Assembly (NCBI GenBank): GCA_025360715.1
Contig: JANYBS010000005.1
Location: 5,571-69,570 of the forward strand
Length of the DNA stretch: 64,000 nucleotides
DNA from: Candidatus Eiseniibacteriota bacterium
GTDB lineage: Bacteria > Eisenbacteria > RBG-16-71-46
Reading direction: 5' to 3'
Position numbers and translations under genes: made by a program. The notes beneath the pieces are model-generated. The model searched no databases. It was not told where the DNA came from and saw only the letters and a program-made list of their open reading frames with translations. Of this stretch, positions 831-32,466 are shown one piece after another (the stretch's first letter is position 1; each line of letters starts with the position of its first letter).

Positions 831-3139
831 TGAGTACCGCCACCCCGAAGCCGCGCGCGAAGTGGGCGGCGGTCGGTCACTCGGTCCCTAAGCTCGACGC
901 GTACACCAAAGTCACCGGCGCCGCCGTCTATGTGGATGACATTCCGGCCGCAGGCATGTTGCATGGCCGCACCGTCCGTTCGACGATCGCGCGCGGCCGT
1001 ATCTGCAGCGTCACGCTCGATCCTGCGTTCGACTGGAGCGCCGTCACGGTCGTCGACTGGCGCGACATCCCAGGCGAGAACGTGGTGGCGCTCATCGAGA
1101 GCGACCAGCCGTTGCTTGCGCATGATGACGTCCGGCACCAGGACGAAGCGATCGTGCTGCTTGCGCACGAGGATCCGGAATACCTGCTCGAAGCCATGAA
1201 GCACGTGCGTATCGAATATGAGCCCCTCGAGCCGGTCCTCACGATCGAGGATTCCCTTGCGCGCAAGGACGTGCTCTACGGCAGCGACAACGTCTTCAAG
1301 ACCATCCATATCGAACGCGGGAACACCGCGGCCGGCTTGGCCAGCGCCGACGTGGTCGTGGAAGCCACCTATCGGTTCGGCCATCAGGAACATCTCTATA
1401 TCGAGAACAACGGCATGATCGCCGTGCGCACGCGCGATGGCGGCCTGCATGTGCGCGGTTCGCTGCAGTGCCCGCACTACGTGCACAAGGCGCTCTGCCG
1501 AGCGTTCGCACTGCCGGGCGACAAGGTGCGCGTGGCCCAGACGGTCACGGGGGGCGGCTTCGGTGGCAAGGAGGAGTATCCCTCCATGATCGCCGGCCAC
1601 GCCGCGCTGCTTGCGTGGAAGAGCGGCCGCCCCGTGCGTCTCATGTATGACCGGCTCGAAGACATCGCCGCGACCACCAAGCGCCATCCGGGCGTGATCC
1701 ATATCCGCGCCGGCGTCCAGCGCGATGGCACGCTCGTGGCACTCGAGTCCGACATCGTGCTTGACGGCGGCGCCTACGCGACGCTGTCCGCAGTGGTGCT
1801 CTCGCGCGGCGCGATCCACGCCGGCGGGCCGTACCGGTGGCCACACGCCCGCATCCATGCGCGCGTCGTCGCCACGAACACCCCACCGAATGGCGCGTTC
1901 CGCGGCTTCGGCGCGCCGCAGACGCAGTTCGCGCTCGAGTGTCATATCGATCGCCTCGCGGCGGAACTGGGTATGGACCCGGTCGATCTTCGGCGTCGCA
2001 ACGCGCTGATCATCGGCGACATCACGCCCACTGGCCAGACGTTGCACGAGAGCGTGAGCGCGCACGAAGTACTCGAACGCACGCTCGAGGCAAGCCGCTT
2101 TCACGCGCGTCGCAAGGAGTTCACGAAGGCCAACGCCAAAGCCGAAGCTGCCGAGCGCGCCGGGCGAAGTTCGCCAGGCGGCCGCCGTCTGCGTCGCGGC
2201 ATCGGCTGTGCGCTGGTCTATCACGGCGCCGGCTTCACCGGCAGTGGCGAGGTGCGTCTCGCGAGCAAGGCGGCGATGGAACTCACCGAAGACGGCTGGC
2301 CGCGCATCCTGGCAGGCACGACCGAGATCGGGCAGGGGACGATAACGGTGTTCGCGCAAGTGGCCGCCGAAGCGCTGGGCCTTGCGCCTGCGCGTGTGCA
2401 GGTCGCCGAGCCCGACACGGCGCGCGTGCCCGACAGCGGCCCCACGGTCGCCTCGCGAACGCTCATGATCGTCGGCGCGCTCGTGGGCGAGTGTGCGCGC
2501 GACATGCGCGCGGCGCTCGAAGGTCTCACGGGCAAGCCGGTCGCCAACGAAGCGGCGTTCCGTCGTGCTGCCAAGCGATGGCTCCAGGAGCGCGGCCCGC
2601 TGCGCGTGGAAGCGAAGTACCGCAAGCCCGAGTTCATCCAGTGGAACGAGGATACCTATCAGGGCGACGCTTATGGCGTCTTCTCGTACGCGGCGCTCGT
2701 CACCGAGGTCGAGGTGGACCTCGACACCGCTGAGACCCGGGTGCTCGATGTGACCACGGCGCAGGACATCGGTAAGGCCATCCATCCCGTACTCGCCGCC
2801 GGACAGATCGAGGGCGGCGTTTTGCAAGGTCTGGGCTGGGCGTTGCTGGAGGAAGTGCGCTGGAAGGACGGCCGCGTGTGGAACGCGCAGCTCACCAATT
2901 ACATCATTCCCACGTCGGCGGATGCGCCGCCGATCCACACCATCCTCGTCGAGAACCCCACATCGCTCGGGCCGTTCGGCGCCAAGGGCGTGGGCGAGAT
3001 GCCCATGGACGTGCCCGCGCCCGCGGTCGTCGCCGCGATCGCCCACGCCACCGGCGTGCGCATGACCGAGATCCCGGTGACGCCGGAGCGTTTGCGAAGC
3101 GCACTGCGAGCGGATGGGAACACAAGGACCGGACGATGA
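830..3139 (+). CDS. Xanthine dehydrogenase / aldehyde oxidase family molybdopterin-binding large subunit
   Basis: 769 aa. The N-terminal a/b hammerhead plus the Mo-pterin binding domains are typical of the XdhA/CoxL family (GFGGKEEYPSM, GQIEGGVLQGLGWALLEE, EMPMDVPAPAV). It is followed in order by the 2Fe-2S and FAD subunits. Confidence 0.85.
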   Translation: MSTATPKPRAKWAAVGHSVPKLDAYTKVTGAAVYVDDIPAAGMLHGRTVRSTIARGRICSVTLDPAFDWSAVTVVDWRDIPGENVVALIESDQPLLAHDDVRHQDEAIVLLAHEDPEYLLEAMKHVRIEYEPLEPVLTIEDSLARKDVLYGSDNVFKTIHIERGNTAAGLASADVVVEATYRFGHQEHLYIENNGMIAVRTRDGGLHVRGSLQCPHYVHKALCRAFALPGDKVRVAQTVTGGGFGGKEEYPSMIAGHAALLAWKSGRPVRLMYDRLEDIAATTKRHPGVIHIRAGVQRDGTLVALESDIVLDGGAYATLSAVVLSRGAIHAGGPYRWPHARIHARVVATNTPPNGAFRGFGAPQTQFALECHIDRLAAELGMDPVDLRRRNALIIGDITPTGQTLHESVSAHEVLERTLEASRFHARRKEFTKANAKAEAAERAGRSSPGGRRLRRGIGCALVYHGAGFTGSGEVRLASKAAMELTEDGWPRILAGTTEIGQGTITVFAQVAAEALGLAPARVQVAEPDTARVPDSGPTVASRTLMIVGALVGECARDMRAALEGLTGKPVANEAAFRRAAKRWLQERGPLRVEAKYRKPEFIQWNEDTYQGDAYGVFSYAALVTEVEVDLDTAETRVLDVTTAQDIGKAIHPVLAAGQIEGGVLQGLGWALLEEVRWKDGRVWNAQLTNYIIPTSADAPPIHTILVENPTSLGPFGAKGVGEMPMDVPAPAVVAAIAHATGVRMTEIPVTPERLRSALRADGNTRTGR

Positions 3140-3642
3140 GTGGACCTGTCACCTTGAAGCTGCGCGTGAACGGACGTGCGATGACCTTGAGCGCCCCGCC
3201 CATGAAGCGCCTGCTCGATGTGTTGCGTGAGGAGGCGCATCTCACCGGCGCCAAGGAGGGATGCGGCGAAGGCGAGTGCGGCGCTTGCAGCGTTCTGCTG
3301 GACGGCATTCCGGTGAATTCGTGCCTCGTGCCCTTTGGTCAGTGTGAAGGCGCGCGTATCACCACAGTGGAAGGTCTAGCGAGCGGCCGCCGCTTGAGCG
3401 CGCTGCAACAGGCGTTCGTGGAGATGGGCGGATCGCAGTGCGGCATCTGCACCCCCGGCATGCTCATCGCGGCGACGGCATTGTTGGACCGGAAGCCGGG
3501 GCGCGTGCCGTCCGAGGACGAAGTGCGCACGGCGCTCGCCGGCAACCTGTGCCGCTGCACCGGCTACCAACGCATCGTCGACGCCGTGCGCGCCGCAGCG
3601 AAGCCACGGCCCTCAGGCTCCAAGCCCGGCAGGGGCCGATGA
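3136..3642 (+). CDS. Xanthine dehydrogenase family [2Fe-2S] iron-sulfur subunit
   Basis: Internal ATG at 3136 overlaps the upstream stop as ATGA. The protein MSGPVTLKLRVNGRAMTL... contains the plant-type ferredoxin motif CGEGECGACSV and the second cluster motif CGICTPG...CRCTGY. Confidence 0.85.
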   Translation: MSGPVTLKLRVNGRAMTLSAPPMKRLLDVLREEAHLTGAKEGCGEGECGACSVLLDGIPVNSCLVPFGQCEGARITTVEGLASGRRLSALQQAFVEMGGSQCGICTPGMLIAATALLDRKPGRVPSEDEVRTALAGNLCRCTGYQRIVDAVRAAAKPRPSGSKPGRGR

Positions 3643-4505
3643 GGTCGCCGCTCTCGACCCTCACGTTGCTGCGTCCGCGCACGGAACGCGAGGCGCTCGC
3701 TGCCATGACGGCGTCCGAGGCTCCACGGCCGATCGCTGGCGGCACCGATCTGTACGTTGCGATGCACGCGGGCATCTCGCACGGCGCCGAGTATCTGGAC
3801 CTCTCGCGCATCAAGCCCTGGCAGCGCATCGAACACGACGCGCGCGGCGTCACTCTGGGTGCGACCGCGACGTTCCTGCGCATCCAGGCCGACGCCGCGG
3901 TCCGCCGCCGGCTTCCGGCGCTCGCGGCCGCCGCCGCCGAAGTTGGGGCGTGGCCGATCCAGGCGCGCGCCACGATCGGCGGCAATATCGCGAATGCCTC
4001 GCCGGCCGGCGACTCGCTGCCCGTACTGCTCGCATACGACGCCGTCGTGCACCTGCGTTCGGCGCGCGGCATGCGCGAAGTTCCGTTCACCGAACTCCTC
4101 ACCGGCTATCGCACACTTGCCATGGAGCGCGACGAGCTCATCGCGGCCGTGCGCATCCCGTATCCCGCCCGGGGCGTGACCACGTTCTTCCGCAAGGTTG
4201 GCACACGCCGCGCCCAGAGCATCTCCAAGGTGGCCTTCTGCGCCGCGTTCGGCTTCGACGCCAAAGGCCGTACGTCGCACGTGCGGCTGGCCTACGGCAG
4301 CATGGCCGCCACGACGCGCCGGGCAGTACACGCCGAGGCGGTCTTCCTGGGCCAGAAGCCGGCGGCAGCGCTCGAGGCGGCCATCGCGGCGCTCGCGCAG
4401 GACCTCACGCCGATCGATGACGTCCGCTCCGATGCCGCCTACCGGATCGACATCGCCGCCCGGCTGCTGGAACAGTGCGTGCGTGTGGTGACAGGGAGGC
4501 GGTAG
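3639..4505 (+). CDS. Xanthine dehydrogenase family FAD-binding (medium) subunit
   Basis: ATG at 3639 overlaps the previous stop (ATGA). The sequence MRSPLSTLTLLRPRTEREALAAM...IAGGTDLYV matches the FAD-binding molybdopterin dehydrogenase domain (CoxM/XdhB-like). 288 aa. Confidence 0.8.
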   Translation: MRSPLSTLTLLRPRTEREALAAMTASEAPRPIAGGTDLYVAMHAGISHGAEYLDLSRIKPWQRIEHDARGVTLGATATFLRIQADAAVRRRLPALAAAAAEVGAWPIQARATIGGNIANASPAGDSLPVLLAYDAVVHLRSARGMREVPFTELLTGYRTLAMERDELIAAVRIPYPARGVTTFFRKVGTRRAQSISKVAFCAAFGFDAKGRTSHVRLAYGSMAATTRRAVHAEAVFLGQKPAAALEAAIAALAQDLTPIDDVRSDAAYRIDIAARLLEQCVRVVTGRR

Positions 4506-11279: not shown

Positions 11280-11762
11280 TTGCCGCTGCTTCTGCTCGCC
11301 GGCCTGGCGGGGGCGTACTCCGCTAAGGCCGACTCCACCAAGCCTTCCACGCCGGCGCCGGCGTTCACGCTGGATGGCCGCTCGGGTCCGGTTTCGCTGG
11401 ATTCGCTGCGCGGCCGCGTCGTGTACGTGGATTTCTGGGCGTCTTGGTGTGATCCGTGCCGGCGTTCGTTCCCGTGGTTGCAATCGCTCCAAGCGAAGTA
11501 TGACTCGCTGGGACTCACCGTGGTCGGCGTGAATGTCGACAAGGACCACTCGCTCAGCGAAGCATTCCTGCGCGAGCACCCAGCCACATTCATGATCGCC
11601 TATGACGCCAAGGGCAAGGTCGCGGAGGCGTACCACGTGAAAGTCATGCCCTCGAGTGCCCTCATCGCGCGCGATGGCACGCTCGTGTCCCTGCATCCCG
11701 GCTTCGATCCCAAGCAGGCCGCCGATATCGAGAAGCGCATCCAGGAGGTATTGGCACGATGA
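11280..11762 (+). CDS. TlpA-like thiol:disulfide oxidoreductase (thioredoxin fold, WCDPC), copy 1
   Basis: 160 aa with a short signal-like N-terminus and the motif FWASWCDPC. The TlpA/ResA-like fold continues to ...VMPSSALIARDG. Its stop overlaps the DUF4266-1 start as ATGA. Confidence 0.8.
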   Translation: MPLLLLAGLAGAYSAKADSTKPSTPAPAFTLDGRSGPVSLDSLRGRVVYVDFWASWCDPCRRSFPWLQSLQAKYDSLGLTVVGVNVDKDHSLSEAFLREHPATFMIAYDAKGKVAEAYHVKVMPSSALIARDGTLVSLHPGFDPKQAADIEKRIQEVLAR

Positions 11763-11989
11763 AGACGCGACGCGCCGTAGGGGTGATCCTGCTCGCCGCT
11801 GCTGCCGCCAGCCTGAGCAGTTGTGCGGCGATGAGCGTCAAGCCGTGGGACCGCGATCTTCTCGCCCAGCCCAAGATGCGGTTCCAGCCGCTGCCCATGG
11901 TGCACGCGGTCGACAATCATATCTATTTCTCCAAAGAAGGCTCGATGGGCGGCGATGACGTGAGCGGCGGAGGCTGCGGATGCAACTGA
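11759..11989 (+). CDS. DUF4266 family small lipoprotein, copy 1
   Basis: 76 aa. The lipobox is LSSC and the characteristic C-terminus reads ...GGDDVSGGGCGCN. It lies between the thioredoxin and the DUF3570 genes, as is typical for this family. Confidence 0.7.
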   Translation: MKTRRAVGVILLAAAAASLSSCAAMSVKPWDRDLLAQPKMRFQPLPMVHAVDNHIYFSKEGSMGGDDVSGGGCGCN

Positions 11990-13269
11990 GCGAGCCGACC
12001 ACTGCGGCGGCAGCCGATACTCGCGTCGCGCGCCGCCTGCGCACCGCTGCCGCGGTGCTGTTCGCGAGCCTGCCGGCGATCGCGCGAGCGGCCGATAGCG
12101 GCACGGCGAGCGATGCACCCGCGAACCAGCTCGACTTCTCGGGCTTGCTCTACGGGGAAGCCTCGCGCGTCGCGGTGATCGAACCCATCGCCAAGCTCAC
12201 TCACCGCTTCGCCAACGGCCAGTCGCTCTCGGGCCAGCTCGGCATCGACGGCATCACGGGCGCATCGCCCACCGGTGCCCTGCCGTCGGGCAAGGTGACC
12301 ACGGTCACGAGCGCTTCGGGCAACGTGACCACGTCAGCGGCCGACCAGATCCCCACGACCAAGTTCAATGACATACGCGCCTCGTTCGATGCGGACTACG
12401 CCGTGCCCGTGGGCACGCTGTTCAAGTCCACACTGGGCGGGCACTTCTCGCGCGAGAAGGACTACCAATCCACGGGCGCCAACGCACAATTCGCGCTCGA
12501 CGTACTGCAACGCCTTTCGACCATCACCGTGGGCGGCGGCTTCAATCACGACACGAGCTTCCCCACGGGCGGCACGCACGCGCCGTTCACAGACGGCACC
12601 ACCGTTCTCACGACCGACCCGCAGGGCAAGGACGTGACCACATGGATGGTCGGCCTCTCGCGTGTCGTCACGCGCCGGCTGCTCGTGGGCGCCAACGTGT
12701 CGGGCACGAACGAGAAGGGCTACCTGACCGAGCCTTACAAGGTGCTCAGTGTGGTGGACACCGACGGCTACCCGGTGAGCACGCTCACCGAGAAGCGTCC
12801 CGACACCCGGACGCGCAAGAGCGTGCTGGGCAGCGCGGTCTACCATCTCGCCGACGACGTGTTATATCTGTCGTACCGTCGCTACTGGGACGACTGGGAC
12901 ATCCGCTCGCATACGATCGACGTGCGCTACCGTCACGAGCTTGGCGCCGACACATGGTGGGAGCCGCACGTGCGCTACTACGCTCAATCCGAAGCCCGGT
13001 TCCATACCTGGGGATTCGCGCAAGGGGCCGCGTTGCCGCAGTACGCGACGAGCGACTACCGCTTGGGCAAGCTCAACACGCTCACTCTGGGCCTCATGTA
13101 TGGCTTCCATCTCCTGGACTACCCGGGCACATTCACGATCCGCGGCGAGTACATGTCACAGTTCGGCGAGACCCATCCCGAAGGCGCCGTCGGTGTGCAG
13201 AAGAGCTACAGCCTCATGCCGGGACTCAGTATCGGCTCGCTCACCGCGGGCTACTCGATCGGCTGGTGA
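11980..13269 (+). CDS. DUF3570 family exported protein (predicted outer-membrane beta-barrel-like), copy 1
   Basis: 429 aa. The start codon lies inside the DUF4266 stop region (10-nt overlap). The signal region contains RRLRTAAAVLFASLPAIARA. The sequence is beta-rich and ends ...AGYSIGW. It contains DGITGAS and shares motifs with the ORF at 28496..29641. Confidence 0.7.
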   Translation: MQLSEPTTAAAADTRVARRLRTAAAVLFASLPAIARAADSGTASDAPANQLDFSGLLYGEASRVAVIEPIAKLTHRFANGQSLSGQLGIDGITGASPTGALPSGKVTTVTSASGNVTTSAADQIPTTKFNDIRASFDADYAVPVGTLFKSTLGGHFSREKDYQSTGANAQFALDVLQRLSTITVGGGFNHDTSFPTGGTHAPFTDGTTVLTTDPQGKDVTTWMVGLSRVVTRRLLVGANVSGTNEKGYLTEPYKVLSVVDTDGYPVSTLTEKRPDTRTRKSVLGSAVYHLADDVLYLSYRRYWDDWDIRSHTIDVRYRHELGADTWWEPHVRYYAQSEARFHTWGFAQGAALPQYATSDYRLGKLNTLTLGLMYGFHLLDYPGTFTIRGEYMSQFGETHPEGAVGVQKSYSLMPGLSIGSLTAGYSIGW

Positions 13270-13270
13270 G

Positions 13271-14170
13271 GTGACGCCCGAGGCGGCGCCGCGAGTGACG
13301 CGTGAAGGTGCGTTGCTCGTGGCGCGATTCATGGCCATGGCGAGTCCGTGCGAGGTGCTCCTGGAAACGCGCGATGATGCGGCCGGCGAGCGGGCATTGC
13401 TCGCCGCAGCACAGGAAGCCACGCGCATCGAGCACAAATACAGCCGCTATCGCAGCGACAGTGTCACGAACGCGGTCCAGCAGACTTCGGGCACCGATGT
13501 GGAAGTGGACGAGGAGACCTCGGGACTGCTCGACTTCGCCGCCCAGGCCCACGACGTTTCAGGCGGGCGCTTCGACCTCACGACCGGCGCGCTGCGCCGC
13601 TGTTGGACATTCGACGGTCGCCAGGTCACGCCTGACGTTGACGCCATCCGTGATGCACTCACACACGTCGGTTGGTCACGCGTGCAGTGGCGCCGCCCGC
13701 GACTGACACTGCCGGCGGGCATGGAACTCGACTTCGGCGGCATCGGCAAGGAGTACGCCGTGGACCGCGTTGCGGCGATCATGACCGCGCATGTCGCGGC
13801 GCCGTGCCTGGTGAACTTCGGAGGTGACCTGTTCGCTTCGGGGCCGCGCGGCGACGGTGTGCCGTGGAGCATTGGCATCGAGGATCCGGGCGCTCCCACG
13901 TGCATACTCACGCAGGAACTGGCGCTGACACGCGGCGGCGTCGCCACGAGCGGGGACGCGCGCCGCTTCGCGATGGTCGAAGGCCGGCGTCTGGGCCACG
14001 TCCTCGATCCGCGCACGGGCTGGCCGGTCACTGGCGCGCCGCGCTCGGTGACGGTCGTGGCGGCCACGTGCCTGGAGGCCGGAACGTTGGCCACGATCGC
14101 GCTGCTGCATGGCTCCGGCGCCCGCGAGTTCCTGCAGGCGCAGGCCGCGACCTTCACCTTGTTGGACTGA
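13271..14170 (+). CDS. apbE: FAD:protein FMN transferase (ApbE family), copy 1
   Basis: GTG at 13271, 1 nt after the DUF3570-1 stop. The product contains the ApbE core (R-F-MAMAS..., DFGGIGKEYAVDR, GGDLF, DPRTGWPV). About 300 aa, with no obvious signal peptide. Confidence 0.8.
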   Translation: MTPEAAPRVTREGALLVARFMAMASPCEVLLETRDDAAGERALLAAAQEATRIEHKYSRYRSDSVTNAVQQTSGTDVEVDEETSGLLDFAAQAHDVSGGRFDLTTGALRRCWTFDGRQVTPDVDAIRDALTHVGWSRVQWRRPRLTLPAGMELDFGGIGKEYAVDRVAAIMTAHVAAPCLVNFGGDLFASGPRGDGVPWSIGIEDPGAPTCILTQELALTRGGVATSGDARRFAMVEGRRLGHVLDPRTGWPVTGAPRSVTVVAATCLEAGTLATIALLHGSGAREFLQAQAATFTLLD

Positions 14171-14176
14171 CTCCTT

Positions 14177-15373
14177 CTACTGCGGCGGCGTGAAGACGAA
14201 CGGCGCCTGGAAGGCGGTCGCGCCGCCGCGGATGACCGGGAAGCGCCATTCGCGGATCTGCCCCAGCGCGCAATCCGCCAGACGGCTCGAGCCGAGCGTG
14301 TTGACCACCACATGCGCTTCGTCGACTTCGCCGCTCGCGGCGACCACCAGCGAGATCACCAGTTTGCCGCGAAGCGAAGGTTCGCGCTTGAGTTCGTTGC
14401 CGTAGCAGTACTGGATACCGGCGGAATACTTCTGGATCACGGCCAGCAACGATGCGTTGCTGCGGTAGACGCCGGGAGGCGCCACACCGCCGCTGCCACC
14501 GCCGTCACCGGGGCCGACGCCCGAGCCGTGGCCGGTGCCGACGCCGCCACCGCTGCCACCGCCAGAGCCGCCACCCGATCCACTACCGATGCCGTCACCC
14601 ACGCCGTCGCCGATCCCACCGCCCAAACCGCCGCCCGAACCGGCGCTGTGTCCGCCGCGGCCCGGATGCAGGTCCGCAAGCGCCACGAGCGTGCCCACCA
14701 CGACACTGTTGCCAAGGTCCGCGCCGGAGCCGCCACCGACTCGGCCCACGCCGCCGCCACCGAGCGCGTCCTCGCCGCGCGCGACGCGCAGCGAGCGGCC
14801 ACCGCCAGCGCGCAGGGGAGCGGCGCCCTCCGAACTGCTCGCGCTGCCGAGCGAAGCCGTCAGGCCATCGAGCGCGCTACTCACCGCGCGGCCGCCTCGT
14901 GAGCCACTGCCACCACCCAGCGCGTCAGCCAGTTCGGCCTGCGCGCGCGCGCGGCCACTGCCGCCATCGCCGCCCGCGGCATTCAGGTGCACGGGGCCGC
15001 TAGTTCCCGGGCCCGGTGCCAGATGTTCGGGCGCGATGACGCGCGCCACCTTCGAGAGACCGTCACCGCCGCCGCCACCACCGCCGCCGCCGGGCGTGTG
15101 TGTGGGGTCTGCCGCACCAGGTGCCACGACCGGAACGCTCACCGCATGCGTCTGCACGGCGAATTGCGGCGGCAACACCAAGCGCGCGTAGCGCGTCTCC
15201 GGCGCTGCGGCCACGGGCGCAGGCGCAAGGACGGTCGCCGGCATCAATCGTACGCCGACCATGAACACGGCGCCTGCCAGCGCCGTGCCCATGAGGCAGC
15301 GCCGGAACAGGGCGTCTCGCGGATCGAACATCGGGCGCTGGTACGCCGGTGCGGTCATGATATTCACGCGCAT
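14177..15373 (-). CDS. TonB-family / AgmX-PglI-like energy-transducer protein with long Gly-rich linker
   Basis: 398 aa. An N-terminal TM anchor (LMGTALAGAVFMVGV) is followed by Pro-rich and poly-Gly/Ser low-complexity segments. The C-terminal domain (YRSNASLLAVIQKYSAGIQYCYGNELKREPSLRGKLVISLVVAASGEV...) is TonB-C-like. It is the last gene of the ExbB-ExbD-ExbD operon. Confidence 0.65.
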   Translation of the reverse strand: MRVNIMTAPAYQRPMFDPRDALFRRCLMGTALAGAVFMVGVRLMPATVLAPAPVAAAPETRYARLVLPPQFAVQTHAVSVPVVAPGAADPTHTPGGGGGGGGGDGLSKVARVIAPEHLAPGPGTSGPVHLNAAGGDGGSGRARAQAELADALGGGSGSRGGRAVSSALDGLTASLGSASSSEGAAPLRAGGGRSLRVARGEDALGGGGVGRVGGGSGADLGNSVVVGTLVALADLHPGRGGHSAGSGGGLGGGIGDGVGDGIGSGSGGGSGGGSGGGVGTGHGSGVGPGDGGGSGGVAPPGVYRSNASLLAVIQKYSAGIQYCYGNELKREPSLRGKLVISLVVAASGEVDEAHVVVNTLGSSRLADCALGQIREWRFPVIRGGATAFQAPFVFTPPQ

Positions 15374-15377
15374 GGGT

Positions 15378-15860
15378 TCAGGCCTTCTTGAGTACGGCCA
15401 GCGCGATGTCGGGATAGCCGCTCTGATTCACGGTGTACATGACCTTCTGCAGTAAGCGGAACTCGATGTCCTGGTCGCCCTGGATCGTCACGAGGTGCTT
15501 ACGCATCGCACTCGTGTCGCGTGAAGCCGGAGCCTCGCGGCGCAGACGATCCGCCAACGGCGCGATCAACATCTGGTCGTCTGCGAGCGCCGCGGAAACG
15601 GTCGTGATGCGGTCCCCGCCGATCAGGATCGTGCCCTTGTCGATGGCGATCACGGTCGAGTTCTGCATCGCGGCCTCAGCTGTGGACTTGGGCAACGATA
15701 CGCTGGGCGGCGGCGTCGTCGCATCGCCACCTGTCACGAAACTCTTGAGCACGAAGAACAACAGCGTCGTGAGCACGTCCATCATCGACGTGAGGGAGAT
15801 GCCGGTCTCGGCGTGGCGCTGCCCCGCCCAGCGCTTGCGGCGGCCCCTTGTGCGGCGCAT
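15378..15860 (-). CDS. ExbD/TolR family biopolymer transport protein (paralog 1)
   Basis: 160 aa from ATG 15860 (MRRTRGRRKRWAGQ...ISLTSMMDVLTTLLFFVL). It has the single-TM ExbD/TolR topology and a periplasmic domain. Confidence 0.8.
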   Translation of the reverse strand: MRRTRGRRKRWAGQRHAETGISLTSMMDVLTTLLFFVLKSFVTGGDATTPPPSVSLPKSTAEAAMQNSTVIAIDKGTILIGGDRITTVSAALADDQMLIAPLADRLRREAPASRDTSAMRKHLVTIQGDQDIEFRLLQKVMYTVNQSGYPDIALAVLKKA

Positions 15861-15861
15861 G

Positions 15862-16341
15862 TCAGGCTCCCTTCGTGGTCGCGCCTTCGAGCGCGGTGTC
15901 GGTGAGCCCGGCCGCACGGGCCAGGTCCATGAGCGTGACGATCTCCTGATAGCGCGTGCCCGGTTCCGCGAGGATGCGGATCGCCTTGGTGCCCGGATGC
16001 GCCGCCGTGACACTGGCAAGTGCACGCGTGAGCGCCGCGGCCGTGGGCGCCGTCGGCGCGCCGTTCTCGTTCTGCCGGGTGACCGCGATCGCCGCCACAT
16101 CGCGGCCCTCGATCACATACGCCGAACCCTGCACACGCAGCACCAGGTCCAGCCCGGGAACACTCGCCACAGCGGAGTGAGCAGCGGGCGGCGGCGTCAT
16201 CTCGATCGCGCGGATCTCCATGAAGACCGCCGATAAGAGCAGCATCGGGATCAGCACGATGATCACGTTCATGAGCGGCCGCAACTCGAGCTGTGCCTCG
16301 GTGGATTGCTGCAACGCGCCCTTGCGGCGCATCCGCGACAT
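15862..16341 (-). CDS. ExbD/TolR family biopolymer transport protein (paralog 2)
   Basis: 159 aa (MSRMRRKGALQQSTEAQLELRPLMNVIIVLIPMLLL...). It is a second ExbD paralog, 1 nt upstream of paralog 1. Confidence 0.8.
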   Translation of the reverse strand: MSRMRRKGALQQSTEAQLELRPLMNVIIVLIPMLLLSAVFMEIRAIEMTPPPAAHSAVASVPGLDLVLRVQGSAYVIEGRDVAAIAVTRQNENGAPTAPTAAALTRALASVTAAHPGTKAIRILAEPGTRYQEIVTLMDLARAAGLTDTALEGATTKGA

Positions 16342-16344
16342 GAC

Positions 16345-17067
16345 TTATTGCCCCGCCGCGATCGCCGGACGTGCCTGCACCGGTGCGGCCACCGGACGAG
16401 CCTGCGGCATCGCCACGACGCCCGCCGGGCGGTGCGCCTCGCGCGACTTCGTCAAAGCATGCGTCAGCCGGATGCTGGCTTCGTCGACCTGCTCGGCGAT
16501 GCCCTCGATCAGGCCCAGCAGATAGCCGTGGATCACCAGCGTCGGGATCGCGATCACGAGGCCGAATGCCGTGGCATTGAGTGCGGTCGAGATGCCGGCT
16601 GCCAGCAAGGAGCTGCGCTGGGAAGGATCGGCCGCGCCGACAGCGGTGAACGCCTGGATGAGTCCCGCGATGGTGCCCAGCAGTCCCAGAAGCGTGCAGA
16701 CGTTCGCCAGCACGTTCAGGTACGCCAACCGGCGCGAGAGCGGAGGCATCGCCAGCGTCGCCGCGTCGTCCGCCGCCATCTGCAAGTGGTTCGTGTCGGT
16801 ACCGTTCACGTCCAGGATCGCCTGCGCGATCATGGCGACCGGCGCGGTGCTCATGTGGCTCACCTGACGCGCACCCTGCACGTCTCCGGAGCCGATTCGG
16901 CGCGTGACGTCTTCGATCATCTTGCGGCTATCGAGCCGGGCAGCCTTGGAGATCACGAGGAAGCGCTCGACCACGATCGCGGCGATGACGATCGCCGTGG
17001 CGAGGATGAGATACATGAATACGCCGCCCTGCTTGAAGAAAGCGGCGATGGTCGAGAACTCGTTCAT
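16345..17067 (-). CDS. MotA/TolQ/ExbB proton-channel protein
   Basis: 240 aa (MNEFSTIAAFFKQGGVFMYLIL...) with three TM segments and the conserved ExbB/TolQ C-terminal helices. Confidence 0.85.
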   Translation of the reverse strand: MNEFSTIAAFFKQGGVFMYLILATAIVIAAIVVERFLVISKAARLDSRKMIEDVTRRIGSGDVQGARQVSHMSTAPVAMIAQAILDVNGTDTNHLQMAADDAATLAMPPLSRRLAYLNVLANVCTLLGLLGTIAGLIQAFTAVGAADPSQRSSLLAAGISTALNATAFGLVIAIPTLVIHGYLLGLIEGIAEQVDEASIRLTHALTKSREAHRPAGVVAMPQARPVAAPVQARPAIAAGQ

Positions 17068-17405
17068 CGTCGTAGCTCCTTGTCGTGCGCCAGCCGCACG
17101 CGGTTCACGAGGACCAGTGCCGGGAGCCGGGTGCTATCGGCGAGCTCCTGCGCGGTCTTCAGGTAGCGCCGATCCTGGAAGTCCAGGAACCGCCGCTGGT
17201 CCCGCGCGGTGATGAACAACACCTGCGGGGTGGGGATCTCACCTTCGATATGGATGTCCGACAGTTGCCGAGGAGCGTGTGACGCCGGCGCCGCTACAGC
17301 AGGGGCGGCCACCGATGCGCGGCGGGCGCGATGCGCGCGGGCGCTCCAAGTCGTCGCGGGCAGCAGCAGGGCCACCATCGTCACGGTGAGCACTGCGCGC
17401 TTCAC
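17064..17405 (-). CDS. Small exported hypothetical protein (signal peptide), co-operonic with exbB
   Basis: 113 aa with a signal peptide MKRAVLTVTMVALLLPATTWSARA. Its stop overlaps the exbB start (ATGA). No recognisable domain. Confidence 0.4.
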   Translation of the reverse strand: MKRAVLTVTMVALLLPATTWSARAHRARRASVAAPAVAAPASHAPRQLSDIHIEGEIPTPQVLFITARDQRRFLDFQDRRYLKTAQELADSTRLPALVLVNRVRLAHDKELRR

Positions 17406-18394
17406 CGTGCACCCGGCTTGTCGTCATCCGCGTGCGCCAGCGGCGTCGTGAACGCGCCGGCGAGCGAGTCGGGATCCTCGCTTGCACGTGCACGGTATGC
17501 GGCGAACCAGCGCGCGGCAGCCGCGTCGTCGAGCAGGTAGAAGCCGCTCAGGATCGTCATATTGTAGTAGGGACCGGGCAACGCCGCGTCGCGGGCGATC
17601 GCCGCCTCGAAGGCCTTCTGGGCGCCGGTCACATCGCCGGCGCGCAGCCGCAGGATACCCACGTTGTTGAGCGTCGCCGCGTTGTGCCCGGCCTGCTTCG
17701 CCGAACTCGCGAGCAGCTCTGCCGGTGACGGTGAGGCATCGCGCGCGCCCAGGTACACCCGCACCGGCGCCGCTGCTGCGTCATCGCCGGCCGCCGCGAG
17801 TGCGGCACGCGCCTCGCGCGGATGGCCCAATGCGTCGTGGTGCAACGCCAGCGCCGCGAGCAACCCTGCGCGCTCGTGCGGCGAGAAGGCCTCCGGGTGC
17901 TCGTTCACCACCGCCAGGACCGGTAGCGCCTCCGCGGATCGCCCTTCGGCAAGCAGCCAGCTCGAGAGCAGCGCCAGTGAGGGCGCGTGTTGCGGATCAC
18001 GCGTGATCGCCTCACGCACGGCGCTCTCGGCGGAGCCAAGGGAATCGGCCGCGCGCAGCGCGAGCGCCGCCCGGTAAGCCGGCGCGGGATCTTGAGGATG
18101 CGCCAGCATCGCGGCGCGTACCCGGGCCAGCGGAGACTCGGCAGGCGTGTCGCCGGCTGGTGCCACCGCGGCTGATGCCGGGACCGCCGCCTTCGCGTTG
18201 CGGCCGGAGCGCACCACGCCCGCGTGCGACCGCACGTCGGCAACAGCTCCGTGGCGGGCGAACAGGCGCATCCCACAGCCGCCCGACAGCACGGCCGACG
18301 CCAAGGTTGCACCTAGCAATGCACGCGATGCGAAACGCAGTGCGGGCCGGGAAGCCCGCATGAAGGAGCAAGCGGGCAGCAGGTGCTGGGTCAT
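17402..18394 (-). CDS. TPR-repeat lipoprotein
   Basis: Lipobox ...AVLSGGC near the N-terminus, followed by Ala-rich TPR-like helical repeats. Its start overlaps the stop of the giant upstream ORF (ATGA). Confidence 0.5.
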   Translation of the reverse strand: MTQHLLPACSFMRASRPALRFASRALLGATLASAVLSGGCGMRLFARHGAVADVRSHAGVVRSGRNAKAAVPASAAVAPAGDTPAESPLARVRAAMLAHPQDPAPAYRAALALRAADSLGSAESAVREAITRDPQHAPSLALLSSWLLAEGRSAEALPVLAVVNEHPEAFSPHERAGLLAALALHHDALGHPREARAALAAAGDDAAAAPVRVYLGARDASPSPAELLASSAKQAGHNAATLNNVGILRLRAGDVTGAQKAFEAAIARDAALPGPYYNMTILSGFYLLDDAAAARWFAAYRARASEDPDSLAGAFTTPLAHADDDKPGAR

Positions 18395-21300
18395 CGCGAG
18401 CCTCCTTCCTTCGGGTGTGTGCCACGCGGGGCGGCTTGACCGCTGTGCGCCTTGGGATTGTCCCGTTCGCCGCTTCGCGATTCGTCCTGCATCCGCGCCT
18501 GGGCATCTTCATCAACGAGCGGCATGTCCACTTCCGGATGGAATTGGAAGCGATCGGCGAGCCGCTCCCACAGCAAGCTCTGGGCCTGCGCGGTCCACGC
18601 GTCATCCGCGGCGTGTGCGCTGCGGACTTGCCGCAACAACTGCGTGAGAACGCCCACACCTCGGTCGCTGAAGACCTGGGCGCGCGAGCGCAGCACGTCG
18701 TCGTAGGCCGCGCGATCTGCGCCCGTAAGGTCAGCGGGGCGCTCGGCGTGCTGCAGGGCGTCGGCGAACGCGAGCAGCGATTGCCCCATGCGCAATGCCG
18801 AGGCATGTGCCCACAGCGGATCGCCCGAATCGACGCCGCGGCGATAGCGCGCCAGAAGGGTGTCGAGCAGCGCCTTCTTGACCGCGATGCTCTTGGGCAG
18901 CGGCTGCTTGAGCGCCACCGCATCGAACGAGCGCCGCACGTCTTCGCCCTGCGTGAATCGAAGCTGTGCCACGAGCGAGTGGGAGACCAGGTCGGGGTGC
19001 TTCGTCCCCAGTAGCAGATACGCCGCCAGGTGCGAAGGCGCTCCCGTCTGCCGGGTGCGCGCCGCCGGGAGCAAGGCAGAAAGTGGATGCTGTGCGTCGA
19101 CGGCGTCCAACTCGCGTTTCGCCAGCGCCGCCAGGATCGCCATCACCCCGGGCACGTCGTCGGGGTGCATGCGCATATAGGCGACCCGAAGCGAGTCCGC
19201 GCGGGCTGGAGCGCCCGCGCCGGCAAACAGCTCCGCCGCTTTGAGCTCGGCCGCGCCGGCGCCATCGTCCTTCGGGAAACCTGCGGCAAAGCGAAGGTAA
19301 GCATCAGCCGAAGCGCTGCTGCGGCCTGCGGCCTCGAGCGTCTGCGCGACCTGCACCTGCGCGTCGCGCGCATAGCCGCTGCGCGCATAGTGGTCCGTCA
19401 CGACGGCAAGCGCGCGCAAGGCTTCTCCGCGATCCCCAGCGCGCAGCCACGCAAGGCTCGCACGATATTGGGCCCGCGCTGCAAGGGAGTCCGCCGGGTA
19501 GCGTTGCGCCATCTGCTCGAATGCCTTCGCCATCGCGCGATGCGCCGAGGTATCGGTAGCGGCAGCCGCCTCGGCGGCGCGATAGGCGCACACCGGCATC
19601 GCCGCAAGTGCTTGACGCGCGAGCGTGTCGCGATGGGCACGGACCGCCAGGCGGGCGGCGGCGCCGAACGCAACCTCGGCTAGCGCGAAGTCTGCTTGCG
19701 CCACGAACACCTGGGCGCGCTGCGAGGCCGCCAGCGGCGCCCGCGCATCGTTGCTGTCGCGCGCCACGAACCGGGCCAGGTCCGCGCTTGCACGGTCCTG
19801 CCACCCATGGGCCAGCGCCAACTGGCCTTCGCGCCAGAGGATCTCGGGGCTATGCACGTGCGTGGGGAAGCGCTGCACGAATGCATCGCCCTCGTGCAGA
19901 ACGGCCTGCGCAAGACTGTCGGGACCACGTGCCGCGGCCGCGTTCGCATGCCGAGCGTGTTCGTATGCGGCGTCGACCAACGCGACGCGTTGCCAGAGCG
20001 CGACGACAGCGATGCTGTCGGCGCCGCCGCGAGCCGCGTCGGCGTAGTGCGCCATGGCTTCGTCCGTACGGCCCAGTCGCGCGCTTGCTTCACCGGCGGC
20101 CAAAGCGAATCGCGCAGCCTCCGGATCCTTCGCCCACTGCGCGAGCAACGCCAGGTCCAATTGCAGTGCCTGCGCCCACGCCTGCGGATCTCCGCTCGTG
20201 CGCGCGCGCTCATGCGCGAGCGCCGAAGCCTGCCGTGTCGCGTCATGCGCGAATGCATCGCCCGCCGCACGCAGCGAGTCGTTCGTCTGCGAACGGGCCC
20301 ACGCGCTCCCCGCGGCAAAACGCGGCGCCAGTGTAACGCGCGCCCCCTGCGCGTCGGCGGCACGATCCGCGCGCTCCCAGGTCGCCAACTCGCGCTGCGC
20401 GCTCAGCAGCGCCTGCGGTGTCTGGGGGTAACGTGCCAGGTAAGCTTCATCGGCCTGCGTCGCCTGGAGCAGCGCGCCGTGCGTGCGCAGGTGCTGCGCC
20501 AACGAAAGCAGCATCGGCGCCGCATACGGACGCTCGCCGAGCGTATCGAAGTACGCCACGAAGGCCGGCGCGCCACCCGCTCCGGCCAGCGCGATCACGA
20601 GGTAGTCGCCCGACTCCGTCCGTAAGTCCACTTGGGGGCGTTCTGCCGTGGTCTCGTAGCGGTCCAGCACGCTGCGGAACGCATCGGCGGCAGACAAGAA
20701 GCGGTCCTCGTTGAAGTGCGACCAGCCGCGTTTGTAGTCCGCGATCGCCGCCAGCGTCGGGTCACCACCGGGCGACGCGGTCGCGTGCGCATAGGCTTGA
20801 GCGGCCTCCACGTACCGCTTCGCTTGGAAACGCGCATCACCCATGCGCACCCATGCCTCGGCGCAGTAGGGCGAGCCGGGATGCTCACTCACGAGCGTGC
20901 GGAAGTCATGCTCGAACGCCGGATCGCCCGCGTCGGCCAGGATCATGCCAGCGTCGAAGAGCACCGCGTCGCGGTGCGGGAACGCCGGGTCGTTGGTGAG
21001 GATCTGCCGGTAGAGCGCCAAGGCACGGTCCTGTGCCAGCACGGGCACCGGGGCGCCGGGCTTCTCATGACGCAGGTACGCGGCCATCTGGTCGCGGAAC
21101 TGCTGGCGGGCGGCGAGCATCTCGAGGTCGGCCAGGCGGAAGCGCATCTCCCCGCGCACGGGAGAATCGGGGTAGTGGGCGAGGAACGCCCGCATGCGCG
21201 GCATCGCGACGGCGCGCAGCGCCGCAGCGCCTTGATCGTCCAAGGCGTCGTCCTGCTCCGTGCTCGCGGTTCGCGCGGTCGCTACACGAGCCGGCGCGAA

Positions 21301-23184
21301 TGCCGTGTCGCGGGCGGCCAGGCGCACGCTGCGCGCATACGCGGACGCGGCCATACCGTAGTCGATACGTTCGCGTTCGCTCTCGAGCGTGGCGCGCGCC
21401 TGATCGACGGCGTCTCGCACGACCGCTTCACGCGTGTGCGCGGCCGCGGCCACGAGCGAGTCGGCGAGGCGATCGGCGCGAACGAGCTGCGCCTGCAACA
21501 CGCGCCACTCGTCGCTGGTTCCGGCAGCTAACCGCTCCGCCTCGATGCCGCGGCGCAAGCGGTCACTCCACGCGAGCAGTTCGGCCGCGGTGCTGTCCTG
21601 TGCAACGGTGCGTCCCAGCAGGCCCGGCCGCCAACGATCGGCGTAGGAGCGAGCCAGCAGTTCGGGAGCCTCGCGCGCAAGCGTGCGGTTCAGCCTTTCG
21701 CAGAGCGAGTCGAGCGCCTGCTCCTGAGCCAGCACCGCATCCGGCCGGGGCATGCCCTGGGGCGCCCAACGAAGCTTCGCGCCCGCGGTGCCGCCCAGTT
21801 CGATGCGGCGCATCGCCGCCGCCCACGCGGCCTGAGCGCGCGCCTGAGCCAGCATCTGCTCGGTGCGCGCCAGCAACTGTTGGGTCGCTGCGTCGCGCAC
21901 ACCGCGCAGATGCGCGTCGATGGTAGCGAGCGAGGCTTCGAGCGAGTCCAGCACTGCGCGCTGGCGTTCCAGCGTCGCACGCCGCGCGCCAAGTCCCGCG
22001 AGTCCGCGCGAAAGGTAGATCTGCAGATCCGCCAGGCGGGCTTGCTCGCGCTGCATCGCGCTACGGGTAGCGCCAGCCGCGGCGAACGCAGCGTCGGCAA
22101 GGCTCTCGGCCTGTGTGACGCGCTGCCACGCGGCGGCATCGGGAGGCGGGACCAGCGCGCCATCATCCCTACCGAAGCGATCGTCCCGGCGAATCGCGCG
22201 CGGCGCCGCGGCACTCACCACGATCGCAACCAGCGAATCCCCCTGCACACGCACCGGGTCCTCGGCCAGCGTCCAGGCGTTCCGGATCGCGGCGCGCTCG
22301 CGCCACGCGTCCCAGAGCGTATCGGCGTAGGCGTGCGCGCGCAGGGCCTCGATCCGGTTGGCATCGGCTGCGTGCAGGGAATCCCCACGCGCATAGAGCG
22401 CTTCGGCGTCCTCCCAATGACCCATCTCGAGTGCCTGCGACGCCGCACCGGCCAAAGCCGCGCGCCGAAGGGCGCCGGACGGCGATCGCGCGGCCGTCTG
22501 TTCGAAGGTCACCTGCGCAGCAGCATGGTCGCCACGTTCCGCCGCCCGCTGCGCCTGCCAGAGCCCTGCGCGCAGAGCGGCCTGGGTACCTGCTGGGATC
22601 TGTCGCAGCCATCGCGCGACATCGTCTGCACTCGACGTGGCGCGAGTCGCAAGGCGCAGCGCCGCCGCACCGGCACGCTCACGTCCCGCGGGCCTCAGTG
22701 TGTCAGTGGTCACGATTGCCGCGAGCGCTGCGGGATCATCCTGTGCAGAGCCGGCTAACACACCGGCGGCGCTTGTCGCAGGCATGCCGGCCCGAAGCCG
22801 CGCCTCCGCATCGATCCAGCGCGTCCACACGCTCGCACCACGCCCGATCCGCGCAGACGCGACCGCCGCCGCGATGCTCCGGAATGCCTGCTCATCGCCC
22901 AGCTCCAGCGCCGAATGCGCCGCGAGCAGCGCCGCCCGCTGGGCGTTGTCGCTCGCCGGCAGCGCCTGCCAATCCAGGCCGCGCATCGCCGCCTGCACGC
23001 CGCGCAGATCATGCGCACGTTCGCGCGCGATCGCCCGGCCCAGTGCCAGCGTCACGGCATCGGTCGGCACAACGACCGAGGCGACCTTCGCGGGCGCGCC
23101 TTGCGCGGTGCCCCGGCTTGCGGTGCTCAGCAGCGCCGCCAGCAGGCACGCCCGGACCCCGCGTTGCACTGCAGAGCGTCGCAT
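18391..23184 (-). CDS. Very large (~1598 aa) exported TPR-like repeat protein
   Basis: ATG at 23184 gives a signal peptide MRRSAVQRGVRACLLAALLSTASRGTAQG, 2 nt after the upstream gene's stop. The body is Ala/Arg/Leu-rich helical-repeat sequence with no frame breaks over 4.8 kb. The co-directional gene string supports the minus strand over the three long plus-strand antisense ORFs. Confidence 0.55.
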   Translation of the reverse strand: MRRSAVQRGVRACLLAALLSTASRGTAQGAPAKVASVVVPTDAVTLALGRAIARERAHDLRGVQAAMRGLDWQALPASDNAQRAALLAAHSALELGDEQAFRSIAAAVASARIGRGASVWTRWIDAEARLRAGMPATSAAGVLAGSAQDDPAALAAIVTTDTLRPAGRERAGAAALRLATRATSSADDVARWLRQIPAGTQAALRAGLWQAQRAAERGDHAAAQVTFEQTAARSPSGALRRAALAGAASQALEMGHWEDAEALYARGDSLHAADANRIEALRAHAYADTLWDAWRERAAIRNAWTLAEDPVRVQGDSLVAIVVSAAAPRAIRRDDRFGRDDGALVPPPDAAAWQRVTQAESLADAAFAAAGATRSAMQREQARLADLQIYLSRGLAGLGARRATLERQRAVLDSLEASLATIDAHLRGVRDAATQQLLARTEQMLAQARAQAAWAAAMRRIELGGTAGAKLRWAPQGMPRPDAVLAQEQALDSLCERLNRTLAREAPELLARSYADRWRPGLLGRTVAQDSTAAELLAWSDRLRRGIEAERLAAGTSDEWRVLQAQLVRADRLADSLVAAAAHTREAVVRDAVDQARATLESERERIDYGMAASAYARSVRLAARDTAFAPARVATARTASTEQDDALDDQGAAALRAVAMPRMRAFLAHYPDSPVRGEMRFRLADLEMLAARQQFRDQMAAYLRHEKPGAPVPVLAQDRALALYRQILTNDPAFPHRDAVLFDAGMILADAGDPAFEHDFRTLVSEHPGSPYCAEAWVRMGDARFQAKRYVEAAQAYAHATASPGGDPTLAAIADYKRGWSHFNEDRFLSAADAFRSVLDRYETTAERPQVDLRTESGDYLVIALAGAGGAPAFVAYFDTLGERPYAAPMLLSLAQHLRTHGALLQATQADEAYLARYPQTPQALLSAQRELATWERADRAADAQGARVTLAPRFAAGSAWARSQTNDSLRAAGDAFAHDATRQASALAHERARTSGDPQAWAQALQLDLALLAQWAKDPEAARFALAAGEASARLGRTDEAMAHYADAARGGADSIAVVALWQRVALVDAAYEHARHANAAAARGPDSLAQAVLHEGDAFVQRFPTHVHSPEILWREGQLALAHGWQDRASADLARFVARDSNDARAPLAASQRAQVFVAQADFALAEVAFGAAARLAVRAHRDTLARQALAAMPVCAYRAAEAAAATDTSAHRAMAKAFEQMAQRYPADSLAARAQYRASLAWLRAGDRGEALRALAVVTDHYARSGYARDAQVQVAQTLEAAGRSSASADAYLRFAAGFPKDDGAGAAELKAAELFAGAGAPARADSLRVAYMRMHPDDVPGVMAILAALAKRELDAVDAQHPLSALLPAARTRQTGAPSHLAAYLLLGTKHPDLVSHSLVAQLRFTQGEDVRRSFDAVALKQPLPKSIAVKKALLDTLLARYRRGVDSGDPLWAHASALRMGQSLLAFADALQHAERPADLTGADRAAYDDVLRSRAQVFSDRGVGVLTQLLRQVRSAHAADDAWTAQAQSLLWERLADRFQFHPEVDMPLVDEDAQARMQDESRSGERDNPKAHSGQAAPRGTHPKEGGSR

Positions 23185-23186
23185 CG

Positions 23187-24044: not shown

Positions 24045-24046
24045 GA

Positions 24047-24625: not shown

Positions 24626-24633
24626 GGCAGCTC

Positions 24634-25509: not shown

Positions 25510-25549
25510 CCATCTCGAGCTCGCATCTCCCGCTGTGCCGATCACCGCA

Positions 25550-28466: not shown

Positions 28467-28495
28467 GGGAGACTCCTTTCCGCGACCTGCGAGCT

Positions 28496-30452: not shown

Positions 30453-30460
30453 GCGCGCGC

Positions 30461-32431: not shown

Positions 32432-32466
32432 GGTGGTGATCCGAACCTCCCGCGACGGTCCGCCGT

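Follow-up and report, generated by a model that had tools for sequence, protein, structure and literature searches.

Does the ApbE-type flavin transferase encoded beside a DUF3570 gene in Candidatus Eiseniibacteriota bacterium attach flavin mononucleotide (FMN) to the DUF3570 protein, and at which residues? The question is raised by a 64,000-nucleotide stretch of assembly GCA_025360715.1 (contig JANYBS010000005.1, positions 5,571 to 69,570 of the forward strand; hereafter the window, in whose own numbering all coordinates are given), which encodes two DUF3570 proteins and two ApbE proteins. A first-pass annotation of this DNA had picked out an ApbE-type motif, D-G-I-T-G-A-S, in the first DUF3570 protein (DUF3570-1). 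Our analysis of conservation and family precedent indicates that, almost certainly, this motif (site 1) makes DUF3570-1 a substrate of ApbE. That central interpretation is right but has been known since 2021, and the window adds two family members. We further consider it probable that DUF3570-1 is a Sec-exported, 16-strand barrel as well as an ApbE substrate in a four-gene module, and that the second protein (DUF3570-2) is a single-flavin paralogue. The argument for DUF3570-1 starts from three features:

11980..13269, plus strand: DUF3570-1, 429 residues, signal peptide at residues 1-37, ending in Trp (Pfam PF12094, E = 1.6e-85).
12247..12267, plus strand: predicted flavinylation site 1, D90-G-I-T-G-A-S96 (motif match, conservation, AlphaFold2 model and family precedent in PMC8238504).
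12307..12318, plus strand: second conserved site, T110-S-A-S113 (family block conservation and a hairpin in the AlphaFold2 model).

DUF3570-1 is a full-length match to PF12094, scoring 287.9 bits over profile positions 5-426 of 427 when the curated gathering cut-off is 25 bits. The codons gac ggc atc acg ggc gca tcg are in frame with the open reading frame (ORF) at 11980..13269 on the plus strand and read D-G-I-T-G-A-S, as the first-pass annotation had it. All five specified positions of the ApbE recognition motif D-x-x-[S/T]-G-A-[S/T] are present, and S96, the predicted FMN acceptor, is encoded at 12265..12267. Because the predicted signal peptide ends at A35-R36-A37, D90 starts 52 residues into the mature protein, in agreement with the earlier estimate of about 50. 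Export of DUF3570-1 by twin-arginine translocation, with RRLR as the signal, was considered and rejected because the consensus of the subfamily, LRxRL, does not preserve the twin arginine.

A motif this short also turns up by accident. The six-frame translation of the window contains two matches to D..[ST]GA[ST] when 1.08 are expected from composition, and 0.010 are expected in a protein of DUF3570-1 composition; on these figures site 1, taken alone, is mildly improbable and amounts to weak evidence. The other match, DEITGAS at 56312..56332 on the minus strand, is a chance match because its frame is broken by nearby stop codons. Site 1 might likewise be a functionless coincidence in a Ser/Thr/Gly/Ala-rich region of a high-GC protein, but conservation speaks decisively against this. 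When DUF3570-1 is compared with 120 homologues of 48-91% identity (close set, counts out of 121), the Asp and the Gly of site 1 are present in 121 proteins each and the terminal Ser in 120. In a wide set of 140 full-length representatives of 50%-identity clusters, Asp and Gly are found in 140/140, a Ser or Thr acceptor in 139/140 and the strict form [ST]GA[ST] in 117/140. The family as a whole is large, comprising 2873 clusters at E ≤ 1e-3. Because it is conserved across the family, site 1 is functional rather than fortuitous, and the family-wide check of the motif bears out the first-pass annotation. Together with the conserved linkage to ApbE and published experimental proof for one family member (PMC8238504), these alignments already refute the coincidence explanation, to which we assign a negligible probability.

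That experimental proof comes from Méheust et al. 2021 (eLife 10:e66878, PMC8238504), who found DUF3570 by way of orphan apbE genes, next to which it is encoded, and described two conserved [S/T]GA[S/T] motifs in it. The Chlorobium luteolum protein (ABB24424.1) is flavinylated when co-expressed with its cognate ApbE (ABB24423.1), and Ser-to-Ala replacement at both motifs is needed to abolish the modification; the published clusters encode thioredoxin-like proteins, DUF4266 with a CXC motif, and ApbE (PMC8238504). DUF3570-1 resembles the C. luteolum protein in its Pfam family and in having two conserved Ser/Thr-x-Ala-Ser/Thr motifs, and the gene clusters are alike in their adjoining apbE and their thioredoxin-like and DUF4266 (CXC) neighbours. 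Indeed, both modules of the window have these neighbours and an apbE within the cluster, as in the published class. The first-pass annotation had named DUF3570 as the obvious candidate substrate, and because a family member is flavinylated, the four-gene module is the same and the motif is invariant, we infer that ApbE would attach FMN, taken from flavin adenine dinucleotide (FAD), through a phosphoester bond to Ser96 and possibly also to Ser113. Within the published class, copy 1 has the first motif as T-G-A-S with Asp at -6, whereas copy 2 is without it. The window also differs from the C. luteolum system in that site 2 of copy 1 is TSAS rather than a strict [S/T]GA[S/T], and in that the adjoining ApbE has no signal peptide; moreover, the thioredoxin-like protein matches Redoxin/AhpC-TSA, whereas the paper names PF13899.

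The second site belongs to a family block, Q-T-x-T-x-[PA]-S-G, that lies 17 residues downstream of S96 and reads T-T-V-T-S-A-S-G in DUF3570-1. We take this block to be the second motif of Méheust et al., matching the two descriptions site by site through the family alignments. In the wide set, S113 is conserved in 137/140 and G114 in 135/140 representatives, and the forms seen include TSPSG (37), TRPSG (18), TSASG (17, the form in the window), TTPSG (10), TGASG (5) and TTASG (5). The residue at the canonical Gly position is Ser in 62, Arg in 24, Thr in 23 and Gly in 19 of the 140; strict TGAS occurs in only about 6/140, and the family-wide form is T-x-[PA]-S-G. Site 2 of copy 1 departs from D-x-x-[S/T]-G-A-[S/T] at the Asp and the Gly. 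These are positions at which the ApbE motif tolerates change, since mutagenesis from Gly to Ala leaves about 50% flavinylation and from Asp to Ala has a minor effect (2025 review, PMC12052999). A divergent relative with the same module has T-G-A-S at both sites. Ser113 may, on the basis of these alignments, be a second FMN acceptor of DUF3570-1.

The recognition motif is shared with FMN_bind-type substrates (NqrC, RnfG, NosR and PceC) and with DUF2271, which carry FMN on the last residue of D-x-x-[S/T]-G-A-[S/T] and, like DUF3570, are extracytosolic redox proteins. The folds are unrelated, however. FMN_bind-type and DUF2271 substrates consist of small domains that are either soluble or located in the inner membrane; for DUF3570, a 16-strand outer-membrane barrel is predicted, and its sites fall within the long loop that follows strand 3 or where this loop begins. 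AlphaFold2, run with subfamily alignments, models DUF3570-1 as 16 long antiparallel strands (predicted local distance difference test, pLDDT, 86.9; predicted template modelling score, pTM, 0.82) and DUF3570-2 as a beta-barrel also (pLDDT 83.7, pTM 0.77). The strands of DUF3570-1 are joined alternately by short turns (2-6 residues) and by loops, most of them long (98-125, 194-214, 248-275, 337-364 and 396-415). A Foldseek search of the PDB with this model returned only outer-membrane barrels (TodX/FadL, OpdK, OmpG, BcsC and PelB), all of them generic matches with template modelling (TM) scores of at most 0.52, and no specific structural relative was found in the PDB. Site 1 is at the end of barrel strand 3 (82-97), and site 2 forms the apex of a small hairpin (107-110/116-119) within the loop joining strands 3 and 4, the first of the long ones; the motif of copy 2 is in the equivalent loop (72-101) after strand 3, by a short helix and at lower confidence. 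DUF3570 is thus predicted with confidence to form an outer-membrane barrel whose long-loop side bears both sites. Barrels of this kind usually have their termini and short turns in the periplasm. If DUF3570 conforms to this topology, we infer, its flavin sites would either lie on the surface side or fold into the barrel lumen. The recovery of C. luteolum DUF3570 in the insoluble pellet (PMC8238504) is consistent with a barrel. DUF3570 is not described as a barrel in the literature searched, and PMC8238504 mentions neither a barrel nor a missing signal peptide.

What, then, of the second DUF3570 protein, in which the first-pass annotation had seen a variant of the motif?

28496..29641, minus strand: DUF3570-2, 381 residues, likely GTG start at 29641 (Pfam PF12094, E = 1e-31).
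29348..29368, minus strand: D92-A-I-T-T-A-S98 (381-residue numbering), the only candidate flavinylation site of DUF3570-2.

DUF3570-2 matches PF12094 with 110.6 bits over profile positions 106-382 only, and belongs to a distinct, shorter subfamily of about 380 residues (120 homologues). The sequence IDAITTAS is present in it (29348..29371, minus strand), as had been reported, but its placement opposite site 1 does not stand. BLASTP aligns only the C-terminal 105 residues of the two copies (30% identity) and is uninformative on the motif region. Comparison of the two profiles with hhalign (probability 99.5%, E = 3e-22), and likewise MAFFT, aligns P97, P102 and G104 in copy 1 with P72, P77 and G79 in copy 2 as an anchor; site 1 precedes this anchor and lies opposite N-N-E-Q-V-T-I-P of copy 2, and DAITTAS follows it. 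The hhalign partner of DAITTAS is V-T-T-V-T-S-A-S, site 2 of copy 1. In tblastn searches, moreover, VTTVTSASG of copy 1 pairs with VDAITTASR in four other genomes, and IDAITTASR of copy 2 pairs with IQTTTTASG of a subfamily-1 protein. MAFFT, applied to a mixed set, puts DAITTAS opposite N115-A121, a few residues past site 2, so the exact loop register of the two is uncertain. Nevertheless, in these alignments DAITTAS corresponds in position to the second site, and no method supports its equivalence with site 1.

The earlier inference that, with Gly replaced by Thr, DUF3570-2 may be flavinylated poorly or not at all treats the motif as decayed, a reading that does not hold. In the consensus A-[VI]-D-A-[IV]-T-T-A-S-R-P-I, the residues D, A, T, T, A and S are invariant in 121/121 subfamily members of 55-95% identity, so that DAITTAS is a conserved variant and not a product of decay; Thr is also common at the corresponding position of site 2 family-wide. 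The copy 2 subfamily has therefore lost site 1 while keeping and tightening one site, with the gain of an Asp. This strict invariance, and the place of DUF3570-2 in a larger conserved cluster with an ApbE of its own at the head, make it most likely that the protein is a paralogue carrying a single flavin and not a decayed version of copy 1. The co-occurrence of two-site and one-site proteins is not peculiar to the window, as a second Candidatus Eisenbacteria contig (contig_16431) carries both modules as divergently transcribed neighbours, separated by about 2 kb. Within the family, a two-site form can be told from a one-site form with invariant T-T-A-S, the latter offering a direct test case for the strictness of ApbE recognition.

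The cluster around DUF3570-2 bears on what its motif is for, and includes the following:

33737..34759 (or longer), minus strand: ApbE-2, head of the module-2 cluster (Pfam ApbE, E = 2.2e-78).
33102..33554, minus strand: conserved 150-residue protein with the motif C-D-A-T-G-D-C-H, upstream of the 669-residue protein.
30461..32470, minus strand: 669-residue PD40/HZS_alpha-like protein with two CXXCH motifs, CVGCH and CMSCH (Pfam; conserved cluster member by synteny).
29877..30452, minus strand: TlpA-like thioredoxin-fold protein of module 2 (Pfam AhpC-TSA, E = 2.7e-19).
29632..29880, minus strand: DUF4266-2 lipoprotein ending GGGCACN (Pfam DUF4266, E = 4.3e-12).

An ApbE gene had been placed next to each module. 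This is so for module 1, in which the gap is a single nucleotide, but not for module 2, in which ApbE-2 (ending at 33737) heads the cluster at a distance of 4.1 kb on the upstream side of copy 2, with five genes in between, those for the 150-residue protein, a small OMP_b-brl protein, the 669-residue protein, the thioredoxin and DUF4266-2. In the 669-residue protein, PD40 beta-propeller repeats accompany a middle domain of the hydrazine-synthase-alpha type, and the presence of the CXXCH and C-D-A-T-G-D-C-H proteins together with DUF3570-2 suggests that heme and flavin carriers are brought together in this cluster. Copy 2 is part of a co-directional run of about 21 kb (14177..35047, minus strand), which continues 3' of DUF3570-2 with an NHL/FlgD_ig gene, four unannotated genes (one of them SH3/OMP), a 1635-residue TPR protein and a 330-residue TPR protein, and ends with ExbB, two ExbD and a TonB-like gene. 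From ApbE-2 to the large TPR protein the cluster is syntenic in eight other contexts, and ApbE heads it in seven of them. Among the proteins of the cluster only DUF3570-2 has a conserved [ST]xA[ST] motif, which makes it the only visible candidate substrate of ApbE-2. The 669-residue protein was considered in this role and rejected, because its T-G-A-S is T-G-A-A in three of six orthologues and lacks the Asp.

It is nonetheless conceivable that DAITTAS is conserved for the shape of the loop, for a partner or for a non-covalent ligand, that DUF3570-2 is free of flavin, and that the substrate of ApbE-2 is encoded elsewhere. The Thr at the canonical Gly position is compatible with this, as is the AlphaFold2 model, in which the motif falls within a short helix of lower confidence (pLDDT about 66) or immediately behind it; one syntenic context, moreover, has no ApbE within 10 kb, and the ApbE-2 of the window has no detectable export signal. 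All seven motif positions (Ile exchanging with Val) are invariant, however, among them the Asp and the final Ser by which recognition by ApbE is defined, and the equivalent position across the wider family is often T-T-A-S or T-G-A-S. ApbE at the head of the cluster in seven of the eight other contexts, and the lack of another conserved candidate site in the module-2 cluster, argue in the same direction. We therefore regard a flavin-free DUF3570-2 as a serious alternative but a distinctly less probable one than a single-flavin paralogue. As to ApbE-2 itself, its start is uncertain (the ORF is open to 35047), and its maximal 12-residue Kyte-Doolittle hydropathy is 1.61, compared with 2.3-2.75 in six orthologues. 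A gene of about 460 codons that precedes apbE in other genomes is absent from the window, and its place is taken by a divergent, TonB-dependent-receptor-like CarboxypepD_reg/OMP_b-brl_3 gene (34951..37923, plus strand) that overlaps the open frame of ApbE-2. The missing signal and the replaced neighbour raise the possibility of a rearrangement or an assembly breakpoint at the 5' end of ApbE-2.

Several observations weigh against the combined picture of an exported, flavinylated barrel and a single-flavin paralogue. Apart from the Thr of DAITTAS, Pro replaces the canonical Ala at the second site in 98 of the 140 wide-set representatives, so that modification at that site may not be general. No signal peptide is detected in the ApbE-2 of the window, though six of its seven orthologues have one. 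No DsbD is found among the scanned ORFs of the window. A further point concerns the ApbE of module 1, whose presumed substrate is exported: neither ApbE-1 nor the ApbE of about 70 orthologous loci from several phyla has a signal peptide or lipobox.

13271..14170, plus strand: ApbE-1, FAD:protein FMN transferase, 299 residues, GTG start (Pfam ApbE, PF02424, E = 5.5e-64).

The matches of ApbE-1 in the PDB include TM1553 (6e-36), and alignment to TM1553 and to Treponema pallidum Ftp shows an intact catalytic signature, ATSGD ... GHVLDPRTGWP, within which SGD...GHVLDPRTG is conserved. Its GTG start follows the stop codon of DUF3570-1 after 1 nucleotide, only 21 residues precede the conserved domain start A-M-A-S-P-C-E-V-L, and solved ApbE chains with truncated signals align with it from close to their N-termini. 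In the roughly 70 orthologous loci, ApbE starts 40-115 nucleotides past the DUF3570 stop without a hydrophobic stretch, and many of these loci have an in-frame stop directly upstream of the ApbE start. The ApbE is likewise signal-less in two more divergent contexts. A precedent for such an enzyme is the cytoplasmic ApbE of Klebsiella pneumoniae, which flavinylates a soluble fumarate reductase and is also signal-less (PMC12052999); its substrate is cytoplasmic, however, whereas the only candidate here has a signal peptide and an outer-membrane fold.

These data could mean that ApbE-1 never meets the exported DUF3570-1, either because an exported ApbE of the module-2 type flavinylates it or because the role of ApbE-1 is cytoplasmic and unrelated to DUF3570. 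The maximal hydropathy of module-1 type ApbE (at most 0.73, the value of ApbE-1 itself, as against 2.3-2.75 in exported module-2 orthologues), the in-frame stop that in many loci leaves no room for a signal after the DUF3570 stop, and the known action of signal-less cytoplasmic ApbEs on cytoplasmic substrates (PMC12052999) would all fit such a separation. Nevertheless, ApbE lies directly 3' of DUF3570 in nearly all loci, from several phyla, whose downstream sequence is long enough to show it, a candidate motif is found in no other module protein, and a module-2 ApbE is not shown for many genomes that have module 1. The insoluble C. luteolum DUF3570, furthermore, was flavinylated in Escherichia coli after signal-peptide-truncation cloning (PMC8238504), which suggests that ApbE may act on the unfolded chain in the cytoplasm. 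We accordingly consider it improbable that ApbE-1 is not the partner of DUF3570-1. Possible routes are flavinylation of the unfolded precursor before Sec export, an unrecognised export of ApbE-1, or the action of another, exported ApbE. Since DUF3570-linked ApbE is consistently signal-less, where the exported protein acquires its flavin becomes a question in its own right.

The remaining genes of module 1 lie immediately upstream of DUF3570-1:

11280..11762, plus strand: TlpA-like thioredoxin-fold protein (Redoxin/AhpC-TSA) with a WCDPC active site (Pfam Redoxin, E = 3.2e-23).
11759..11989, plus strand: DUF4266 lipoprotein with lipobox LSSC and a C-terminal CGC motif (Pfam DUF4266, E = 1.3e-19).

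The module thus has the order Redoxin/TlpA-like, DUF4266, DUF3570-1, ApbE-1. We compared it with 80 species-level GTDB loci from Candidatus Eisenbacteria, Thermoanaerobaculia and Krumholzibacteriota, which contain only relatives of the copy-1 type (subfamily 1). Redoxin-DUF4266-DUF3570-ApbE is found in the same order in essentially all of them, as well as in two more divergent contexts, and the thioredoxin gene is directly 5' of DUF4266-DUF3570 in 76/80, most of the other four loci ending just upstream of the module. The nearest relatives of DUF3570-1 in these loci are about 57% identical to it, and a metagenome protein is 91% identical. Both DUF4266 lipoproteins have a long Gly-rich tail followed by C-x-C (GGCGCN at the end of the module 1 protein, GGGCACN in module 2), and each DUF4266 gene shares 10 nucleotides with the start of its DUF3570 gene, as in other genomes. 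This overlap suggests translational coupling, and the lipoprotein and the barrel possibly form a complex in which the DUF4266 CXC tail reaches into the DUF3570 barrel.

DsbD and CcdA were both sought in the window and neither was found, the only polytopic membrane ORFs in it being a major facilitator superfamily transporter, FeoB and MatE. DsbD is an optional feature of the published clusters, present in 227 and absent from 316 (PMC8238504), and the window matches the sub-class of 316. One of the divergent DUF3570 contexts encodes a secreted 293-residue DsbD_N-domain protein (1857..2738 on the minus strand of that locus) and a second Redoxin just upstream of the module, which fits the published DsbD link that is absent from the window itself. 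Méheust et al. proposed that the module passes electrons from a thiol pathway to covalent flavins for an extracytosolic redox task, and linked some DUF3570 clusters to iron uptake (PMC8238504).

An extension of this proposal concerns the four-gene module (a TlpA-like thiol-disulfide oxidoreductase, a DUF4266 lipoprotein with C-terminal Cys-x-Cys, DUF3570 and ApbE), of which the thioredoxin, the DUF4266 CXC protein and DUF3570 would act as a flavin-based electron conduit across the outer membrane. The covalent flavins of DUF3570 would be on the long-loop side of the barrel, at the cell surface or in the lumen. The signal-less ApbE would modify the unfolded precursor in the cytoplasm, and the precursor would then pass through Sec carrying its flavin. 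Copy 2 would be the single-flavin form, with D-x-x-T-T-A-S as a recognition variant, in an envelope cluster of 13 or more genes that ends in ExbB-ExbD-TonB. Taken jointly, these propositions are doubtful, and we think it unlikely that all of them hold. Porin-cytochrome conduits of the MtrCAB type offer a functional analogy, as they too combine an outer-membrane barrel with redox cofactors and a periplasmic or lipoprotein partner, an arrangement that could carry electrons through the outer membrane. In those conduits the cofactors are hemes of a cytochrome inserted in the barrel, whereas here they would be flavins bound covalently to the barrel itself; the two are related neither in sequence nor by any specific similarity of fold, and a conduit function for DUF3570 is hypothetical. 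If the predicted barrel does put covalent flavins in or above the outer membrane, a cytochrome-free electron route to the cell surface would result. In the literature searched, where only PMC8238504 treats DUF3570, none of the conduit, pre-export flavinylation and the one-site variant is described. Three leads for specialists emerge, namely the predicted topology of the barrel, the subfamily with a single T-T-A-S site and an ApbE devoid of a signal; for annotation, confident names can now be given to both DUF3570 genes, to the DUF4266 and thioredoxin genes that accompany them, and to the two genes for ApbE.

Two transporter genes of the window recall functions associated with flavins or iron, namely a MatE-family transporter (54957..56339, plus strand) and the ferrous-iron transporter FeoB (50674..52917, minus strand). 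The FAD exporter of Shewanella is a MATE protein, and a MatE gene is also found 2 kb from apbE in one syntenic module-2 context. Any link of MatE or FeoB to DUF3570 is weak here, however, because both genes are far from the DUF3570 genes. The segment 78..4505 on the plus strand encodes a cupin followed by the molybdopterin-binding (830..3139) and FAD-binding (3438..4505) subunits of a xanthine-dehydrogenase-type enzyme, and is unrelated to DUF3570.

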